In this document: positions 1 through 22,911 of the stretch, in pieces
How positions within the stretch are numbered: position 1 is the stretch's first letter
Layout of the letters: each line of letters starts with the position of its first letter
Assembly (NCBI GenBank): GCA_023954815.1
Contig: JAGSHB010000007.1
Location: 3,626 to 67,625, forward strand
Direction of reading: 5' to 3'
DNA: 64,000 nt
Source of the DNA: Myxococcales bacterium
GTDB taxonomy: Bacteria; Myxococcota_A; UBA9042
Position numbers and translations under genes: made by a program
Notes under the pieces: model-generated
The model's input: the letters and a program-made list of their open reading frames with translations, nothing else
The model's database searches: none
What the model was told of the DNA's origin: nothing

Positions 1-1167
1 AAGCCCCCGTTCATCAGGCGAACGGCCCTTCAAGTCATTGCGATAGTGATCATCCCACACCGTCCAACCCATGTCCGCTAGCTGTGCGGGCCGATAGCCG
101 CCCAAACTCCACGGCTCAGCGATCAGCAACGCATCGGGGCGAATGGCCGTGGCGACGGCGCGAATCTCGCGGAGCGTCTCGTCGTCGATCAACTCAGCGA
201 GGTCGAAGCGCAAGCCATCGACGCCGATCTCTGCGAACCAACGCCGCACACTGGCGACCACCAGCGCGCGCATCTCTGCGGCGCTGGTATTGAGATCGTT
301 GCCGCAGCCACTATGCGAGCGGTAGCCGCCGTCTTGGTCGCGATGAAACCAGTCGCCCGGATCGAGGAGCAACAAGGGGTTCTGGTCGTGCGCGGAGACG
401 TGATTGTAGACGACGTCGAGAATGACCCCGAGCCCTTGCGCGTGGAGGGCGGTAACCAGATCACGCAACTGCGCCGCAGGGTCATCGAAGACACCGTTGT
501 CGTCGACGCCGACCCACGCGCCACGCTCCGCGGCCGCCCACGCCGGCGTGTAGCGCGCGCTGGCAGCGAGAAGGTAGCTCGGCATGTAGCCCCAGTGATT
601 CGTTCGATCGCCCTCAAACACGGGCCAGGAGGTCACCGGCAGCAGCTCAACTGTGTCCGCACCAAGGGCTCGGACGTGGTGTGAACCGCCGATCGCCGCT
701 GCATGTTGCTCGGCAAACCCGGCGTAGGTCCCCGGGGCGGTCGTGCCAGCGCTAGCGTGGGCGGTTGCGTCGCTGAGGTGAACTTCGATGATCACTGCGG
801 CGTCTCGGTCGATGGTCACGCCAGTGCCAGTGGGGTGAAGCGGTGGAGTAGCGACCGACCAAGTGGGATGGCCCGCTGTCTTGCGACGCACGACCGCCCG
901 AGACCACGGATCTGCGACCGTCACCGTGCCCCAACGGTGGTGAACACGAAACCGATAATACCCCAGCGGAACTGGTACATCCGCCCGCCAAACGCCGCGA
1001 TCGCCCGGCGCCAGCCGCATCGTGGTTAGGCGCTGTGGTTCAGCGTTTGGGTGCCGACGCTCGACCAGCTCCACGTGGTCGGCTTTGGGCGCACAGAGAC
1101 GGAAGCAACCCTCGGAGGCACACCATCCCAACGGGCTGCGAACGGCGGAGCTGTGGTCCCTGCTCAT
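1..1167 (-). CDS. GH13 glycogen debranching enzyme / pullulanase-isoamylase family (3' end runs off the window)
   Basis: Not in the ORF track. Manual translation of the minus strand from ATG 1167 (ATGA overlap with the glgB stop) is open to base 1. It shows VELLPV, NHWGYMPSYLLA, LDVVYNH, SGCGNDL, DGLRFDLA (nucleophile) and IAEPW (acid/base). Confidence 0.9.
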   Translation of the reverse strand, partial: MSRDHSSAVRSPLGWCASEGCFRLCAPKADHVELVERRHPNAEPQRLTTMRLAPGDRGVWRADVPVPLGYYRFRVHHRWGTVTVADPWSRAVVRRKTAGHPTWSVATPPLHPTGTGVTIDRDAAVIIEVHLSDATAHASAGTTAPGTYAGFAEQHAAAIGGSHHVRALGADTVELLPVTSWPVFEGDRTNHWGYMPSYLLAASARYTPAWAAAERGAWVGVDDNGVFDDPAAQLRDLVTALHAQGLGVILDVVYNHVSAHDQNPLLLLDPGDWFHRDQDGGYRSHSGCGNDLNTSAAEMRALVVASVRRWFAEIGVDGLRFDLAELIDDETLREIRAVATAIRPDALLIAEPWSLGGYRPAQLADMGWTVWDDHYRNDLKGRSPDERGL

Positions 1168-3056
1168 GCGCGCCCCAGTACGAGGACGCTGTACGCAGGG
1201 ACGTCCAATAAAATACCGACGTTGTCCCCATGTGGGCCCGATGGCATCGGGGGGCGTGCTTTGGCGGTGCTGCCATCGAAGTCGCTGCTGTGCAGAAGCA
1301 CCCGCCAAGACCCAGACGTCGGCAGAACGTACCCCTCGCGAGGGACGTCGGCGGCGTTGACAATCACCAATAGAGAGTCGGCTTCGGCGTCAGGTTCAGC
1401 CATGCTGTGGCGGGAAAATGCGTAGATGGAGTGGGCTGCATCGTCCGCATCGACCCACGAGAAACGGCGGGTATCGTGGTCGCCGCCAACCAATGCTGGG
1501 TGACTTCTGTAGAGTCGATTGAGCGCTGCGAGCCAGTCTTCAAGGGATTTTCGCGGCTTTTCTGCTGCTTGGCCCCAGGGGATCTCACCGTCAAAATCCC
1601 ACTCCCGCTCCTGACCGAACTCGCAGCCCATGAACACCAGCTTCTTGCCTGGCGACAACCATTGCAGCCCATAAAGCACGCGTAATTGCGCCAGACCCGT
1701 TCGCCAGTCGCCGCCCATTTTTCGGACCAGACTCCCCTTGCCGTGCACAACCTCGTCGTGGCTCAGCGGCAGCACAAAGGCCTCGGCGTCGGCATAGGAC
1801 GACGAAAACGTCAGCTCGTGGTGGTGCCAGCGGCGATGCTCCGGTGCGCGCGAGAAATAGGACAGCGAGTCGTGCATCCAGCCCATGTTCCACTTCAGCG
1901 AAAACCCAAGGCCCGCATCCTGAGGCGCAAGCGGTGGCACCGGGTCGCCCGTGACGGCAGCAAACGCGGTCGACTCTTCGGCGATGGTCACCACCCCTGG
2001 GTAGGTCTGACGCACGACACGGTTGAGATCTTGCAAGAAGCTGATGGCGTCCAGGTTCTCTCGCCCGCCGAAGCGGTTGGGCAACCACTGGCCGGCCTCG
2101 CGGCTGTAGTCGAGGTAGAGCATGGAGGCGACCGCGTCGACCCGCAGCCCGTCGATATGAAACGACTCGATCCAATGGCACGCGCTCGCCAACAGGAAGC
2201 TGCGCACCTCGGGTCTGGCGTAGTCAAAGACCAGCGTGCCCCAGTCCGGATGCTCGCCGAGTCTGGGATCTGCGTACTCAAATAGGGGGGCGCCATCGAA
2301 CTGCGCGAGCGCGTGAGCGTCCTTTGGAAAGTGTGCGGGCACCCAGTCCATAATGACGCCGATGCCTGCCTGATGCAGCCGATCGATGAGGTAGCGCAGG
2401 TCATCGGGGTTGCCATAGCGCGACGTCGGCGCAAAGAACCCGGTCACTTGGTAGCCCCAGCTCGGGTCGTAGGGATACTCGGCGAGCGGCAGGAACTCGA
2501 CATGGGTAAACCCGAGCCTCATCACATGAGCCACAAGCCGATCCGCGACCTCCCGATAGCCCCAGGATCGGCCATCCCCGTGACGCAGCCAAGATCCCAA
2601 GTGGACCTCGTAGATGCTCATCGGCTGCTGATGATCGTCGCCTTTTCGCGCGGCCAACCAATGACCGTCGCCAAAGATGTGTCGCGCGTGGCCGACCAAA
2701 CGCGATGCAGTCCCCGGCCGTAGCTCCGAGGCAAACGCAAAGGGATCGGAGCGTTCTGCCCACTGGCCGCTCAGGTCGCGAACGGCGAGTTTGTAGAGCT
2801 GCCCAGCTTGCGCTTGCTCAATGTGACCGACAAAGCAATCGCCGTCCCGAGTCAGCGCCTCGCCCTGCCAAGCCGAAAAGTCGCCTTTGACCTGAATTTC
2901 CTGGGCTCTCGGCGCCCAAACAGCGAAGTGAAAGCCACCATCTGGGTGCGGATGCGCCCCCAACCAACGCCACGCATCAAACCCCATGGCCGCGTGGAAG
3001 CGCTCGCGTAACGCTTGCACCTCGGTTGACGACAAAGCTGTGGCGTCTGGCAACAT
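1164..3056 (-). CDS. glgB: 1,4-alpha-glucan branching enzyme
   Basis: Motifs FAVWAPRA, IYEVHLGSW, WGYQVTG, DWVPAHF, DGLRVDAVASMLY, IAEEST, LSHDEVVHGK. Start placed at ATG 3056, which has a GGAGGG RBS. Confidence 0.96.
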   Translation of the reverse strand: MLPDATALSSTEVQALRERFHAAMGFDAWRWLGAHPHPDGGFHFAVWAPRAQEIQVKGDFSAWQGEALTRDGDCFVGHIEQAQAGQLYKLAVRDLSGQWAERSDPFAFASELRPGTASRLVGHARHIFGDGHWLAARKGDDHQQPMSIYEVHLGSWLRHGDGRSWGYREVADRLVAHVMRLGFTHVEFLPLAEYPYDPSWGYQVTGFFAPTSRYGNPDDLRYLIDRLHQAGIGVIMDWVPAHFPKDAHALAQFDGAPLFEYADPRLGEHPDWGTLVFDYARPEVRSFLLASACHWIESFHIDGLRVDAVASMLYLDYSREAGQWLPNRFGGRENLDAISFLQDLNRVVRQTYPGVVTIAEESTAFAAVTGDPVPPLAPQDAGLGFSLKWNMGWMHDSLSYFSRAPEHRRWHHHELTFSSSYADAEAFVLPLSHDEVVHGKGSLVRKMGGDWRTGLAQLRVLYGLQWLSPGKKLVFMGCEFGQEREWDFDGEIPWGQAAEKPRKSLEDWLAALNRLYRSHPALVGGDHDTRRFSWVDADDAAHSIYAFSRHSMAEPDAEADSLLVIVNAADVPREGYVLPTSGSWRVLLHSSDFDGSTAKARPPMPSGPHGDNVGILLDVPAYSVLVLGRA

Positions 3057-3166
3057 CTTCCCTCCGAGGCGGGAAGGTAGCGCCTGACAACTCACAGCGA
3101 AACCGAGATGACACTGGCCTGCTGCGTATCGCCCAACAGACCTTACCGCCCCACCAACTGGAGTTG

Positions 3167-4258
3167 ATGATGACCCACCGCTGGCGAACCCTGCTTGGCA
3201 TCCTGCTGACGAGCCCCCTGATTGCGTGCGCAGAGGAGCCGTCGCCGGCCTATGAGCCAGTCCCGATGCCATTTCATCCGCTAGCAGATGCGCTTGTGCA
3301 CGTAGGGGACGAGGCGATCACCCTGCCCCTGACGACGGCCACGGTCAGCGGTCACGTCGCGATCGGTGACCTGACCGCATGCACGCCTGAGCTCACGATC
3401 CGAACAACCGGCACATCTGACACCTGCGCCCTGACCCTGACCGCGAGCAAGCAAAAAGACAGCCTCGGCCTAGCGATCACAGGGGCGACCCTTGTCGCTC
3501 GCAATCAATCGGGTGTCTGTGCGCCGCTGGCCGCTCGTTTACCGAACGGGACAGCCGACGTGGTCTATGAACTGGCCGGTGGCGACGCTTGGCTGCCCTG
3601 GGTAGAACCCAAGGAACTGAGCGCTGTGGATGGCGTGCTTGCGGTGGATAAGGTGTTGCTCGCCCTAAAGGGGACCCTCAAGCTAGTCGCCGGATCCGAT
3701 GCGTTGCAGATGCGAGATTTGAGTCTGCAGCTCGGTGGCGATATCGAGCTGACCATCGACGACAAGGTGACCTGCGCGCCCTGCACAAGCCCTGACTGCC
3801 AGAGTCCCTACCCGACCATGAGACTGCGCGATGCGCAGCCCAAGAGCGTGGCTCACAACCTGAAGTACAGCCTAGATCGGTGGCTTGGTCAGTACTTGGT
3901 GGTGATTTTGACGCAGGGATGGTGAACGAGCTGCCGGGCCCAGGCTGGGTCCTTCGATAAGATGCACAAAGAACTCACAGCCAGCGGCTACGACGTCGCC
4001 TTCGTGGGTGCGCACGGCAAGAGCGCAGACAGTCTCTCAGAGCAAAAGGCGATCTACGAGCGCATGGGCTATGCCTTGTTGCAGGAGCGAGATGAGGCGA
4101 GCCTACGAGACGTCTGGCAGACGAAAAATCGCCACGATATCTTCGTATTCGACCCAGCCGGCGGGCTCGTTGCGCAGATCCACGACACAAAGAACGCCAT
4201 GACGCCCGACGGCTACGCCAAGTTGCGGGCCAAGCTGCTTACACTCCTAAAAAAGTGA
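3167..4258 (+). CDS. Putative selenoprotein: lipoprotein with N-terminal 4-Cys domain and C-terminal UxxC thioredoxin-fold (redoxin) domain; TGA 3923-3925 read as Sec
   Basis: Lipobox LIAC. ORF 3026-3925 and ORF 3962-4258 are in the same frame, separated only by TGA. The read-through GW-U-TSC aligns with GW-C-ASC of 4404-5579. A hairpin lies just downstream of the TGA. Confidence 0.8.
3926..3955 (+). promoter_or_regulatory. Candidate bacterial SECIS element
   Basis: GGGCCCA-GGC-TGGGTCC stem-loop (3936-3952) with a G-initiated loop about 18 nt 3' of the UGA. Confidence 0.6.
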
Positions 4259-4403: not shown

Positions 4404-5579
4404 ATGAACACGGCACGGAATTTGGCACTGGCCCTCACTGCTCTGGCAGCGATGATGATGGCTGGATGCGGCGCAGAAGGCGGCGGAGCAGCGACGACAC
4501 CGCTCACCGCGACCGGCACGTTCACCGCAGGTATCGACAACAGTGAGTACACTGTCGACTACGCGGGCGCACAGGTCACGGCCGAGCTGCAGCACAAACT
4601 CACCAAGGAAGGGCAGTACGCTTGCGTCCCCTCGGTGAAGATCTCGATCACACCCAAGCACAGCGACGCAGACGACAAGTCCTGCGGGCTCGATCTGGAG
4701 TTCAAAGCTGACTTCAACGGTGAGTTGAAGCTCAAGAAAGCCAAGTTCTACGCCAAGAGCGCCATCTTCCAGGACGGCGTCGCGATTATGACCTTCCCGT
4801 GTGAGGGCTGGGCGAAAGAGCCCGCCAGCGGCGAGGTGGTCTACGAGAGTCTCGACGGCGCCGAGGGTTCGCTCAGCATGAAGCCCATCGCGCAGCCCCA
4901 AGCTGGACAGGCCAAGGCGGTGCTCAGCAGCACAGCGCTGTCGCCCAAAGGCATCGTCGACATGAAGTTCAAGGGTCGGAAGTTCAAGCTCGATCTCAGC
5001 CAGATCAAGGTCAATGGTTCGGTGACCAGCGCAGGTTCGGAGGACGTCTCCTGTGCGCAGAAGTACCAGCCGCTGCCGTTCGTGGAGCTCAAGGACATCA
5101 ACCCGGGCAGCCCGCTGCACAATCAGACCTACTCGCTGGAAGAGTTCAAGGGCAAGTACGTGGCCGTGCTCATGGGCGCTGGCTGGTGCGCTTCTTGCCT
5201 GAGCCAGACCGACTACATGCAGAAGATCAAGACCGATCTTGAGGCCCAGGGTCGCAAGGATTTCGCGATGGTCGTGATGAACGACAAGACTGCGGCAAAG
5301 CCCAACGACCAGAAGAAGATTTCGACCTGCAATACCAAAGGCAAGTGCACGATTGGTGAGAACGTGCAGTTCACTGTGTTCCAGGCTGATGGGACGTACG
5401 GGTGGAGCTCGTTTACCGACCCCAAAACCGGACAGAAAGGCAAGAAAAACGATTGCTTCATCTATGCCCCTGATGGCCGCTTCATCTTCAAGCACATCGG
5501 CAAGGGCACGGTGCAACTCGGCCAGTTCGACTCGGAAGTTCGGGCTGCGCTCAACACCAAGATCGAAGACATCCCTTAG
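4404..5579 (+). CDS. Lipoprotein with N-terminal 4-Cys domain and C-terminal CxxC redoxin (TlpA/AhpC-like fold)
   Basis: AGGAGA RBS, lipobox MAGC, GWCASC motif. Paralogue of 3167-4258 and 21694-22911. Confidence 0.85.
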   Translation: MNTARNLALALTALAAMMMAGCGAEGGGAATTPLTATGTFTAGIDNSEYTVDYAGAQVTAELQHKLTKEGQYACVPSVKISITPKHSDADDKSCGLDLEFKADFNGELKLKKAKFYAKSAIFQDGVAIMTFPCEGWAKEPASGEVVYESLDGAEGSLSMKPIAQPQAGQAKAVLSSTALSPKGIVDMKFKGRKFKLDLSQIKVNGSVTSAGSEDVSCAQKYQPLPFVELKDINPGSPLHNQTYSLEEFKGKYVAVLMGAGWCASCLSQTDYMQKIKTDLEAQGRKDFAMVVMNDKTAAKPNDQKKISTCNTKGKCTIGENVQFTVFQADGTYGWSSFTDPKTGQKGKKNDCFIYAPDGRFIFKHIGKGTVQLGQFDSEVRAALNTKIEDIP

Positions 5580-5722: not shown

Positions 5723-6091
5723 ATGCTCGTCAGTCGCTCGGTTGTTGGCCTACTTTTGCTTGCAGCGCTATCGGTGATGCCAGGGTGCAGCACCGACGGA
5801 GGCGAGGGCGACCTGCCGCTCGATCGACCCTCGCAAATCGCCGCGCTGACGGCGAATTTAGCAGCGGGCGCAGCGAGCTACGAGACCAACTGTCTGGTAT
5901 GTCATGCCAAGGACGGAAAAGGCGACTCAGGGCCCAACTTGGTCTCGGGCACCGCCGCTGCGCTGCCAACCAAAGCCATGGCCAGCGTCATTCTCAACGG
6001 CAAGGGCTCCATGGGCGCCTACGACTCGCTGACCAACCAAGAGGTCGCCGACATCATTGGCCACGTGATGACCACGCTCGCGGGCAACTAG
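5723..6091 (+). CDS. Monoheme c-type cytochrome lipoprotein
   Basis: CLVCH heme motif, GPNL, distal Met in GSMGAY, lipobox MPGC. Confidence 0.9.
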   Translation: MLVSRSVVGLLLLAALSVMPGCSTDGGEGDLPLDRPSQIAALTANLAAGAASYETNCLVCHAKDGKGDSGPNLVSGTAAALPTKAMASVILNGKGSMGAYDSLTNQEVADIIGHVMTTLAGN

Positions 6092-6131: not shown

Positions 6132-7916
6132 ATGCCCATTCGTGGTGCGTACCGTGAATTGACCGCCGCTGCCCTCATCTTGGGCATCATCCAGGGCGTC
6201 ATCATGACGGCGGCCTTTGTCTACATCGGCCTCAAGCTCGGGTTTGGCCTGTCCGGCTCCACCGTCGCCGCCATCATGGGCTTTGTGCTGCTGCGCGGGG
6301 TGATGGGCAAGGGCACGCTGGTCGAAAACAACCTCAATCAGACCATCGCATCGGGCATCAACACCGCCTCGGCTGGCGTGGTGTTTACCCTGCCCGCCTT
6401 GCTACTGATGAGCGTCAAACGCCCAGAGCTCGGCGACTTTGACCTGTGGCCCATGCTGCTCGCGGCTGTGGCGGGCTCATTCATGGGCATCGTGGTCATC
6501 ATCCCGTTGCGCAAGCAGTTTATCGAGCTCGACCGGCTGCGTTTCCCGTCGGGTATTGCGGTTGCGAGCATCCTGAAATCCCCTGGTGAAGGCGCGGTGA
6601 AGGCGCAGCTGCTCGTCGCAGGCTCATTGTTGGCCGCGGTGGGCACCATCTTGGTCAACCTCGGCATCATCCCGTCAGCTATCGATCTGAACGGCGCGTT
6701 TGGCATCCCCACGTGGTTCCCTCTGGCGATCAGTGTCAGCTTTGCAAACTTGGGCGCCGGGCTCCTGAGCGGTCGCGGCGGCCTGCCGTTCTTTCTTGGC
6801 GGCGCCTTGGCTTGGTGGGTCATCTCCCCGGTCATCACGCACGTGGGGTGGCTGCCATCGCCTGTGAACGCACCAACCGAAGCGGCGGTCTTCGCGCAGC
6901 AGAAGTTGACCATGTACGGCGAGATGATTCGCCCGCTCGGTATCGGCATGCTCATCGGTGGTGCGCTGGCTGGGGTGGTCGCCTCCTATCCTGCGCTCAA
7001 AGCGGCGCTGCGGAGCCTCTCCGTGGCCGCACAGACCGGCACTGCGGGCGGCGGCGCTGAAGAACTCTCGCCGAAAGTGCTCTACATGGGCCTCGGCGGC
7101 AGCGTGGTCGCGCTATTTTGCGCCAGCCTGCTCAGTGACCCAGGTATCGGTGTCGGCACGGCGTTGGTCATGGCGGGGGCTGGCACACTCTGGCTCGGAC
7201 TCGCTGGCCTCATTGTGGCCCAGGCCACCGGTGCCACGGACATCTCGCCGCTCTCGGGGCTGGCACTCATCGCGGTCACGCTGCTGTTTGCGATCACCGG
7301 CGGCAACATCGTCGCCTCGATTCTCATTGGCCTGACGATCTGCATCGCCTCGAACCAGTGCGCGGACATGATGAGCGACCTAAAGACCGGTCACCTCGTC
7401 GGTTCACGCCCCCGGGCACAACAGCTCGCTCAGCTGACAGTCGCCTGGGTCGGCCCGCTGGTGGCCATCGCGGTCATGTTCTTGTTGTGGCGCCAAGGTG
7501 GTGACTTGGGCGGCTTTGGCCCCCAGAGCCAGGCGTGTTTGGACGCCGCTCCCGGTTGTCTGCCCGCGCCCCAGGCCGGTGCGCTGCAGGCCATGGTCGA
7601 ATCGCTGGAAAGTGGCAAAGCCCCGCTCGATAAATACGCAGCGGGCGCGGTCCTCGGAGGCGCCCTCAGCGCGTTCCCCATCGGCGGGTTGGGCGTGCTG
7701 GTTGGCTTGGCCATGTACCTGCCCTTCGACATCACGTTTGGTTACGGCATCGGCTGTGTGGCGAGCATGGGTCTGCAAAAAGGCAAGGGTGTCAACTGGA
7801 TCGGTGATCGCCTGGTCCCCATCGCCGCTGGATTCATCATCGGCGAGGCGTTGACCAACCTGACGTGGGCGATGCTGCAAATGACAGGCGTGGTCGGCGC
7901 CGGCGGAGGTCACTGA
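6132..7916 (+). CDS. OPT/YSL family oligopeptide transporter
   Basis: Multi-TM protein with YIGLKLG, ENNLNQTIAS, LRFPSGIAVA, MSDLKTGHLVG..PRAQQLAQ and LPAPQA motifs. Confidence 0.92.
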   Translation: MPIRGAYRELTAAALILGIIQGVIMTAAFVYIGLKLGFGLSGSTVAAIMGFVLLRGVMGKGTLVENNLNQTIASGINTASAGVVFTLPALLLMSVKRPELGDFDLWPMLLAAVAGSFMGIVVIIPLRKQFIELDRLRFPSGIAVASILKSPGEGAVKAQLLVAGSLLAAVGTILVNLGIIPSAIDLNGAFGIPTWFPLAISVSFANLGAGLLSGRGGLPFFLGGALAWWVISPVITHVGWLPSPVNAPTEAAVFAQQKLTMYGEMIRPLGIGMLIGGALAGVVASYPALKAALRSLSVAAQTGTAGGGAEELSPKVLYMGLGGSVVALFCASLLSDPGIGVGTALVMAGAGTLWLGLAGLIVAQATGATDISPLSGLALIAVTLLFAITGGNIVASILIGLTICIASNQCADMMSDLKTGHLVGSRPRAQQLAQLTVAWVGPLVAIAVMFLLWRQGGDLGGFGPQSQACLDAAPGCLPAPQAGALQAMVESLESGKAPLDKYAAGAVLGGALSAFPIGGLGVLVGLAMYLPFDITFGYGIGCVASMGLQKGKGVNWIGDRLVPIAAGFIIGEALTNLTWAMLQMTGVVGAGGGH

Positions 7917-21693: not shown

Positions 21694-22911
21694 ATGAATG
21701 CTCTCTCCCGGCTCCCACGCTTTCTCCTCATTTTGTCCTGCATCGCCGCCTTTGCCTGCGGGAGCGACGAGACGGGCGAGACCACACCCACCGGCGCCAA
21801 ACTGAGCGGCTCGTTTTCGGCATCCGTCGATGGCTCAGACGTGACCGTGGACTACGCTGGCGGCAAGTTGGTCGCGGAGCTGGTGCACAAGATCAACACC
21901 AGCGAAAAGGGCTACGGGTGCATCACCTCGGTGTTCCTCTCGGTCGCCAAGGCCGACGGCAGCTGCGCGTTGGAGCTGACGTACCAACCCGGCGCGGGAG
22001 ATGGGCTGGCGCTGTCCAAAGCCAGCTTCTTTGCCGTGGGGGGCGACAAGCAGGGCGGCATCCTGATCAACCCGATCAAGTGCGCGGGATTCCCAGGTGC
22101 AGAGGGGAACTCAGAGGTCGAGTGGACCCTCGCCGGCGGCGACAGCAACCTGTCGGTCAAGCCTGTGAAACCGGGTGAGGCGAACAAAAAGTCGGCCTCG
22201 TTGGCGGACCAAGATCTGAAGCTCAGCGGCAAAATCAAACTGAAGAAGGGCGGCAAGCTCTTCGAGCTCGATCTCAGCAGCATTCGCATCCAAGGCACGC
22301 TGACTAGCGTCGGCAGCACGCAAGTCTCCTGCGGCACGGCGAAAGGCGTCGAGGTCTGCCCCAAGGGCGTCACCTACGGCAACAAGGTGGGCACCTATGT
22401 GCGTCGGCCACTGGGTGCCTACCACTGCACAGACGACAGCATCTACGATCCGGGCGAGCTCTGTGGCAGCCCCGCGCAGGTCCTCGTGGCGTACCAGCAC
22501 TGGGTCACGGAAAAGGACAACTACGGCGGTAAGGACGTGCTCGGCGGCCTGGGCAAGACCGTCACCAACACCAAAGATCTAGGGGTGATCTTCGTGGTCC
22601 TGACCGGCAAGCAAAAAGTCGTGGTGAAGAACGCGGAAGGCAAGTTCGAGGCGAGCGGCCCAGCGCCGACCCAGGCGGACTGCGCTGAGATCAAGAAGCT
22701 GTACAACCTGCCCGATAGCGTGGTCATGCTCTACGACAAGGACAAAGCGTTGACGAGCACGGAAAAAATGCCGGTGGGCGCGGGCTTCACCCCTGGTATC
22801 GCGGTGGCGTCGTCAACGGGTAAAATCGTGCAGTTGCTGCCGGACAGCGCGGGCAAGATGGACCAAGGGATGCTCGACGCGGCGATTCAAGCGGCCGTAG
22901 ACGCAGAGTAG
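21694..22911 (+). CDS. Lipoprotein paralogue of 4404-5579 with a degenerate redoxin domain
   Basis: Lipobox AFAC. Near-colinear N-domain (TVDYAGG.L.AEL.HK). HWVTE is found where WCxxC is expected. Confidence 0.8.
   Translation: MNALSRLPRFLLILSCIAAFACGSDETGETTPTGAKLSGSFSASVDGSDVTVDYAGGKLVAELVHKINTSEKGYGCITSVFLSVAKADGSCALELTYQPGAGDGLALSKASFFAVGGDKQGGILINPIKCAGFPGAEGNSEVEWTLAGGDSNLSVKPVKPGEANKKSASLADQDLKLSGKIKLKKGGKLFELDLSSIRIQGTLTSVGSTQVSCGTAKGVEVCPKGVTYGNKVGTYVRRPLGAYHCTDDSIYDPGELCGSPAQVLVAYQHWVTEKDNYGGKDVLGGLGKTVTNTKDLGVIFVVLTGKQKVVVKNAEGKFEASGPAPTQADCAEIKKLYNLPDSVVMLYDKDKALTSTEKMPVGAGFTPGIAVASSTGKIVQLLPDSAGKMDQGMLDAAIQAAVDAE

Follow-up and report, generated by a model that had tools for sequence, protein, structure and literature searches.

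Redoxin selenoproteins in which selenocysteine (Sec, U) takes the first position of a U-x-x-C motif (PF00578, cd02966, and PF08534) have been known since Kryukov and Gladyshev (2004; Table 1, PMC13188914). A 2026 review that counts 119 selenoprotein families lists a Prx-like thiol:disulfide oxidoreductase, together with a thiol-disulfide isomerase-like protein and a "Redoxin family", as U-x-x-C selenoproteins (PMC13188914). Here, we describe a gene of this type on a 64,000-nucleotide stretch of DNA from a Myxococcales bacterium (contig JAGSHB010000007.1 of assembly GCA_023954815.1, positions 3,626 to 67,625), which we call the window. Positions 3167 to 4258 of the window are a single gene for a 363-residue selenoprotein that gene callers divide in two. 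We read it, with a probability of roughly 0.92, as a selenoprotein directed by a selenocysteine insertion sequence (SECIS), consisting of a lipid-anchored, all-beta N-terminal domain and a ResA/TlpA/CcmG-like redoxin domain with a Sec253-x-x-Cys256 center.

With the listed U-x-x-C selenoproteins the window protein shares a thioredoxin fold of the AhpC-TSA/Redoxin/TlpA kind, Sec in the first motif position, Cys homologues, a SECIS just 3′ of the UGA, and a function that is predicted. It differs from them in being a lipoprotein with an extra all-beta N-terminal domain of ∼190 residues and the motif GW-U-TSC, and, as far as the sampling goes, in being limited to a single uncultured Myxococcota family. 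Among curated selenoprotein models, NCBIfam NF053656 ("TUGYCR motif thioredoxin fold (seleno)protein") comes closest, aligning over profile positions 2 to 145 of 146 (E = 2.7e−13) with Sec/Cys at the same position. However, the window protein reaches 50 bits where the cut-off is 100, its motif is WUTSCR rather than TUGYCR, and it carries the additional N-terminal domain. Because half the required score is spread over the whole profile, we consider the protein to be related to recognized selenoproteins but not captured by this model.

Structurally, the best matches are ResA, TlpA, and CcmG (DsbE), which share with the window protein a W-C-x-x-C-type motif and an extracytoplasmic membrane tether (predicted in the window protein). 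The setting is also similar, with a DsbD/CcdA-type partner in the genome and a conserved c-type cytochrome gene nearby. The window protein differs in having Sec for the first Cys, a lipid anchor instead of a transmembrane helix, and the extra domain. At the sequence level it falls outside the TlpA family (NF047696, 16.8 bits versus a cut-off of 230), and a sequence search of the PDB gave marginal matches only (best, TlpA 1jfu, E = 0.068). The N-terminal domain of animal selenoprotein P (SelP_N, PF04592) carries Sec at the homologous U-x-x-C position, whereas the window protein is a bacterial lipoprotein without the Sec-rich C-terminal tail. With Cys substituted for Sec, the window protein scores 23.0 bits against the SelP_N gathering cut-off of 23.2, and it was not matched in the genome scan. 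Selenoprotein P has been linked only distantly to bacterial TlpA/ResA (Lobanov et al. 2008, PMC2397514).

The type of selenoprotein is thus already known, and it is the architecture that is unusual. An earlier note on this DNA, made from sequence alone (the original prediction), was supported in its interpretation and overstated in its novelty, given the long-catalogued U-x-x-C thioredoxin-fold selenoproteins and the related model NF053656. What goes beyond the catalogue is (i) an unassigned but confidently folded N-terminal domain; (ii) Sec, Cys, and apparently inactive paralogues within one window; and (iii) conserved cytochrome c and OPT-family neighbors.

A single reading frame spans the UGA codon

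The gene comprises the following elements.

3160 to 3163, + strand: Shine-Dalgarno-like GGAG before ATG 3167/3170 (sequence inspection).
3167 to 4258, + strand: complete selenoprotein gene of 363 codons, Sec codon 253, terminal TGA at 4256 to 4258 (read-through translation, Pfam AhpC-TSA match across the internal TGA, colinear orthologues).
3167 to 3229, + strand: predicted lipoprotein signal peptide, MMTHRWRTLLGILLTSPLIAC, with lipobox L-I-A-C and lipidated Cys21 (codon 3227 to 3229).
3230 to 3811, + strand: N-terminal all-beta domain, approximately residues 22 to 215 (AlphaFold2 model; no family match).
3812 to 4255, + strand: thioredoxin-fold redoxin domain, approximately residues 216 to 363, ResA/TlpA/CcmG-like (AlphaFold2, Foldseek, Pfam AhpC-TSA, NF053656).
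3923 to 3925, + strand: UGA codon for Sec253, which opens the U-T-S-C motif (sequence and orthologue alignment).
3932 to 3934, + strand: TGC for Cys256, the putative resolving Cys of U-x-x-C (sequence; Cys invariant in the alignment).
3936 to 3952, + strand: predicted bacterial SECIS hairpin, GGGCCCA / GGC loop / UGGGUCC (energy, pairing, covariation).

In the window sequence and its list of open reading frames (ORFs), a 299-amino-acid ORF opens at TTG 3026 and terminates in ...VVILTQGW at TGA 3923 to 3925. Immediately downstream, ACG AGC TGC (T-S-C) continues in frame, and the frame stays open until the TGA at 4256 to 4258; a 98-amino-acid ORF is called separately from ATG 3962. Reading through the internal TGA gives the 363-residue protein, and without read-through the product would have 252 residues. 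The true start is placed at ATG 3167 or 3170 rather than at TTG 3026; the GGAG lies just 5′ of these codons, and a signal peptide and lipobox follow. The signal, RWRTLLGILLTSPL-IAC (equivalently MMTHRWRTLLGILLTSPL-IAC), fits the lipobox pattern [LVI][ASTVI][GAS]C, and its Cys is kept in orthologues P0005, P0007, P0008, P0012, P0013, and P0018. The protein is accordingly predicted to be exported and lipid anchored at Cys21, numbering from ATG 3167. The Pfam AhpC-TSA family (PF00578) covers residues 232 to 334, spanning the TGA codon at 253, with 29.9 bits against a gathering cut-off of 26.

The original prediction had taken this arrangement for an exported Sec-redoxin of about 363 residues, split by the ORF caller, whose TGA sits on the first Cys of a CxxC motif shared with the adjacent gene. 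The sequence agrees on the end of the 299-amino-acid ORF and on the continuing frame, and the length, lipoprotein signal, and redoxin domain are as proposed. BLASTP of the read-through protein against the neighbor at 4404 to 5579 reproduces the predicted alignment (E = 1e−17): YSLDRWLGQYLVVILTQGW-[TGA]-TSC and YSLEEFKGKYVAVLMGAGW-C-ASC correspond in every column, with the TGA opposite the first Cys of the neighbor's GW-C-ASC.

The UGA codon is conserved and alternates with cysteine

We searched 61 related genomes in six frames. Homologues were detected in 43 of them, most with exactly one in-frame TGA, and 30 loci from these other genomes were extracted for alignment. At the redox column the codon is TGA in 20 of the 30 loci and TGC or TGT in 10, and wherever TGA is present it encodes the first residue of W-U-x-x-C. 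Full-length orthologues with a single TGA, at GW-U, occur in three related genomes (G002, 53% identity; G008, 35%; G010, 40%). Metagenome contigs L045/L046 and L047, three independent contigs of which two encode the same protein, carry LTQGW-U-TSCKAQAG. In all, the residue-253 codon is TGA in 7/7 sequenced orthologues (the window, three related genomes, and three metagenome contigs) at 35 to 54% identity. The second Cys of the motif (Cys256) is invariant in the alignment, the orthologues are colinear with the read-through protein up to the C terminus, and the 12 codons from the TGA to ATG 3962 show conservation at the protein level (TSCRAQAGSFDK, NSCKAQAGSFDT, and VSCRAQAASFET).

When 1.84 billion representative proteins were searched exhaustively with HMMER, each of the seven fragments of the N-terminal domain stopped at query residue 252 ("GW"), the matching C-terminal fragments started at residues 255 to 279, and full-length Cys relatives surfaced as well. 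A homologous-protein search returned four matches, all truncated, and a related-loci search of genome contigs with a single protein query returned no match. All public copies that we located are divided or cut short at the UGA, and the family is therefore invisible to ordinary annotation; correcting the split annotation adds a selenoprotein family that the closest curated model misses. The conservation of the TGA, of the fragment ends, and of the downstream codons excludes two separate genes as well as an error of assembly or a nonsense mutation private to this genome.

A covarying hairpin lies immediately 3′ of the UGA

A hairpin of 7 to 9 bp, GGGCCCA-GGC-UGGGUCC, starts 10 nt 3′ of the UGA. 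Bacterial SECIS elements are defined by a loop of 3 to 9 nt whose first two positions hold G, a stem of 4 to 16 bp, a distance of 16 to 37 nt from UGA to loop, and a free energy of −7.5 kcal/mol or lower (PMC13188914). The hairpin at 3936 to 3952 has a GGC loop, a 7-bp stem, and a UGA-to-loop distance of 17 nt, and its free energy lies between −10.1 and −11.5 kcal/mol; all of these values fall within the limits.

Across 19 Sec forms, 90.8% of cells are paired, versus 29 to 47% in controls made by sliding the 3′ arm. These controls have covariation scores of at most 0.096, compared to 0.414 for the hairpin itself, a value that none of 500 shuffles attains. Pairing reaches 95.8% within the orthologue clade versus 24% in 12 Cys forms. 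Compensatory double changes were found in five of eight hairpin pairs among the Sec-form homologues. Some of these alter amino acids (Ala/Ser paired with Ser/Met/Lys), and the RNA structure is therefore evidently kept at the protein's cost. These patterns identify the hairpin as the predicted SECIS of the gene.

The genome encodes the machinery for selenocysteine insertion

The genome from which the window comes (6.44 Mb, 314 contigs, 63% guanine-plus-cytosine [GC] content, 97% complete) encodes a tRNA-Sec(UCA) of 97 nt with a bacterial 8-bp acceptor stem and a long extra arm. SelA (407 bits), SelB (278 bits versus a cut-off of 242), and SelD (397 bits; C154:15282-16220, − strand) were also matched. 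SelD is a selenoprotein itself, with an in-frame TGA at its canonical active site (HGAG-U-ACKL), which indicates that the Sec system is in use. The original prediction had proposed looking for this machinery and tabulating TGA against Cys codons. The machinery is complete, orthologues keep the TGA, more distant homologues form Sec/Cys pairs, and the TGA is neither a private nonsense mutation nor a sequencing error. Together with the covarying hairpin, these results favor the selenoprotein interpretation.

Two unusual calls were made by ARAGORN in the same genome.

C222, c[3979,4063], complementary strand: "tRNA-???(ttgg)" of 85 nt, type-II-like, with an 8-nt anticodon loop (CTTTGGTC).
C276, c[8152,8239], complementary strand: an unusually long tRNA-Pro(tgg) of 88 nt.

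The filtered ARAGORN list for the genome contains no tRNA-Gln(ttg) and no tRNA-Leu(taa). The odd calls may be artefacts of the caller.

The read-through protein is predicted to fold as two domains

AlphaFold2, run on an alignment of 26 sequences, modeled the full-length protein as two domains (predicted local distance difference test [pLDDT] 91.4, predicted template modeling score [pTM] 0.87). Searched against the PDB with Foldseek, the redoxin domain matches ResA, DsbE/CcmG, and DsbF (E ∼1e−6, template modeling [TM] score normalized to the target 0.72 to 0.79). These matches place it in the ResA/TlpA/CcmG fold, a thioredoxin fold with extra elements and W-C-x-x-C at the N terminus of helix 1, here GW-U-TSC. 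The top 20 matches are thiol-disulfide oxidoreductases throughout, with the peroxiredoxin Bcp and GPx7/8 lower down.

At residue 300 (positions 4064 to 4066) the window protein reads MGY-A-LLQE. This Ala replaces a near-invariant Pro in this genome only; the closest orthologues (G002, G010, L045, and L047) and fragment P0027 have Y/F-P-LLQE.

Modeled alone, the N-terminal domain (residues 22 to 215) is all-beta (pLDDT 90.4, pTM 0.86). It has no match in Pfam or NCBIfam, and Foldseek against the PDB returned nothing significant (best E = 0.055, TM score ≤0.26), in line with the original prediction that no known family could be assigned. An identity as a beta-barrel lipoprotein or lipocalin was considered and dropped, the Foldseek matches in that direction being weak (TM score < 0.26). 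Among the genomes sampled, the domain was seen only in the window's own family of uncultured Myxococcota. Its Cys residues at positions 72, 87, 118, and 203 are conserved in the orthologue alignments and probably form two disulfides. The domain is a candidate new fold and is probably a spacer or a substrate-binding module.

Proposed mechanism and alternative explanations

We propose that the UGA at 3923 to 3925 would be recoded to Sec by SelB and Sec-tRNA(Sec) under the direction of the hairpin at 3936 to 3952, and that the lipid-anchored product would display its Sec253-x-x-Cys256 center in the cell envelope. Because Sec stands where a CxxC motif has its attacking Cys, Sec253 should be the nucleophile and Cys256 the resolving residue. 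The solvent-exposed Sec253 would then attack an oxidized envelope substrate (a disulfide or possibly a hydroperoxide), and Cys256 would resolve the intermediate to a selenenylsulfide. Re-reduction would probably proceed through a DsbD/CcdA-type transporter, or possibly a small thiol; one gene for such a membrane electron transporter (DsbD_TM) lies elsewhere in the genome, on C290.

The features expected of a bacterial selenoprotein gene coincide at this locus: (i) an in-frame UGA opposite Cys in homologues (the 20 Sec and 10 Cys loci and the neighbor); (ii) in-frame coding conservation 3′ of the UGA (the Pfam span, the colinear orthologues, and an AlphaFold2 fold that is intact only with read-through); and (iii) an encoded tRNA-Sec, SelA, SelB, and SelD. 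That the TGA is instead a true stop, in a pseudogene, through an assembly error, or between two genes for a 252-residue lipoprotein and a 98-residue protein, is how gene callers annotate it, and TGA is also the real terminator of the gene. Nevertheless, the same TGA recurs in seven orthologues from separate genomes and assemblies at 35 to 54% identity, and the 12 codons that follow are conserved as protein. Termination, which would fall between strand 1 and helix 1, would also break the thioredoxin fold with loss of the second Cys, and a covarying SECIS hairpin lies 3′ of the codon. We therefore reject a pseudogene or nonsense mutation, a sequencing error, and two separate genes on the conserved TGA, the downstream coding, and the hairpin, and regard a true stop as very improbable. 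Open frames across TGA would also be expected from a recoded genetic code or a suppressor, with TGA read as Trp, Gly, or Cys, but TGA serves as the terminator here and in many other genes of this 63% GC genome, the TGA of homologues falls at the redox Cys column, and a dedicated tRNA-Sec with SelA, SelB, and SelD is encoded. An alternative code is rejected on these grounds and is, in our estimation, the least probable of the explanations considered.

Some observations nonetheless weigh against our interpretation. The 96-nt region around the hairpin is no more stable than its shuffles (z = +1.0), although energy is uninformative for this GC-rich stretch of coding sequence, and an Rfam search at a permissive E value returned noise only and no SECIS family. 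Because folding energy is unexceptional and no Rfam model matched, the case for the SECIS rests on covariation and position. In addition, the redoxin alignment of the Sec clade contains R-H-D with an invariant Arg (Arg325 of the window protein), at what we take, on our reading of the alignment, to be the cis-Pro position of ResA/TlpA, with Arg presumably as in peroxiredoxins. This last point also counts in favor of a possible alternative that differs in function only: a selenoprotein as described whose redoxin domain would be an envelope hydroperoxide reductase of the GPx/Prx kind. AhpC-TSA is the best Pfam family, Bcp peroxiredoxins and GPx7/8 are among the lower-ranked fold matches, and a paralogous clade matches SelP_N (see below), whose animal counterpart has reported peroxidase activity. 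We consider a peroxidase the less likely role, though a serious contender. Thiol-disulfide oxidoreductases take all of the first 20 places among the structural matches, and Sec is in the first motif position, in contrast to the TxxU of Sec peroxiredoxins, which have it in the second (Table 1, PMC13188914). A substrate-specific disulfide reductase or isomerase is favored, because the top structural matches are reductases, Sec comes first in the motif, and the neighboring cytochrome c gene is conserved.

Selenocysteine, cysteine, and apparently inactive paralogues

Two paralogues accompany the Sec gene in the window, and three further Sec paralogues lie elsewhere in the genome.

4404 to 5579, + strand: tandem paralogue with Cys (GW-C-ASC), a lipoprotein with N-terminal and redoxin domains as in the Sec gene (BLASTP, Pfam, tree).
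21694 to 22911, + strand: third lipoprotein paralogue, P0156, 405 amino acids (similarity in the N-terminal domain).
C187:48526-49083, C124:21179-21619, and C240:5716-6135: Sec paralogues with the same hairpin type.

P0156 and the Cys neighbor share 38% identity in their N-terminal beta domains (E = 1e−33). The redoxin active site of P0156 has decayed to H-W-V-T-E, with neither Cys nor Sec, and by sequence the protein looks like a redox-dead member of the family. Sec, Cys, and inactive versions of one two-domain design in a single window offer a natural experiment on what Sec gains over Cys.

In a maximum-likelihood tree, the redoxin domains fall into two halves, both well supported. Clade A, which includes the Cys neighbor at 4404 to 5579, is all-Cys in the tree. 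Clade B is Sec-rich and holds the orthologue group of the 3167 to 4258 protein, which is Sec throughout and has the Cys form P0010 as its sister, as well as many shorter lipoproteins with AGW-U-S/G-Y/F-C. Cys forms are nested within Sec clades. The orthologue of the Cys neighbor in genome G010 (L044, G010:C58 5965-7317) is a Sec form, AGW-U-ASC, with a SECIS-like hairpin, GUAUCCCAGGUUGGGAU, at the same offset; because of this orthologue, Sec/Cys switching is placed in both halves of the tree. On this evidence, switching has occurred repeatedly in the family.

The window's genome encodes at least four Sec paralogues in total, with hairpins of the same kind and differing N-terminal regions. This points to an uncultured Myxococcota lineage that draws heavily on selenium for its envelope redox chemistry. 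The three outside the window differ in build: a long Thr/Asp/Ala-rich linker precedes one of them, another is short, and the remaining one is joined to the end of ∼600 residues of Cys-rich repeats (C-x-x-D-x-C-T-x-D-S-C). The C187 and C124 paralogues and the short forms pass the Pfam SelP_N model (43 to 55 bits versus a cut-off of 23.2), which had no match in any of 14 control genomes. Through this tie, the question of where animal selenoprotein P acquired its redox domain becomes easier to approach.

Genomic context of the selenoprotein gene

The genes flanking the Sec gene and its tandem paralogue are as follows.

5723 to 6091, + strand: class-I c-type cytochrome lipoprotein with CLVCH (Pfam Cytochrome_CBB3, E = 7.9e−12; syntenic in G002, L045, and L047).
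6132 to 7916, + strand: OPT-family transporter (Pfam OPT, E = 4.7e−52; syntenic).
1 to 3272, − strand: glgX-like gene and glgB, divergent and upstream of the Sec gene, with no obvious functional link.

The Sec gene, paralogue, cytochrome, and OPT genes share a strand, and the gaps between them measure 146, 144, and 41 nt. A promoter and terminator scan predicted no plus-strand terminator between these four genes, nor did it yield a sigma-70-like promoter. Cytochrome c and OPT genes 3′ of the Sec gene were counted in four independent contexts (the window, G002, L045, and L047); in L047, the cytochrome c gene directly adjoins the Sec gene. Yeast OPT transporters include glutathione importers, and by analogy a link of the OPT neighbor to thiol supply is conceivable. 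A broader proposal is that the Sec lipoprotein, paralogue, cytochrome c, and OPT transporter would constitute a dedicated envelope redox module of one uncultured Myxococcota family, with the N-terminal domain and its four conserved Cys a new fold for docking the redoxin to a specific substrate, and with the Sec-rich clade, shorter paralogues included, the closest prokaryotic relative of the U-x-x-C domain in animal selenoprotein P. We offer this as speculation that is more likely wrong than right; if the selenoprotein P relationship were true, the U-x-x-C domain would already have been a selenoprotein before animals.

The full order glgX-glgB / Sec gene / paralogue / cytochrome c lipoprotein / OPT transporter is found again in G002 and L045. 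G010 has only glgX-glgB / Sec gene / paralogue in common with the window, and the junction of glgB with the Sec gene is kept in G002, G010, L045, and L046.

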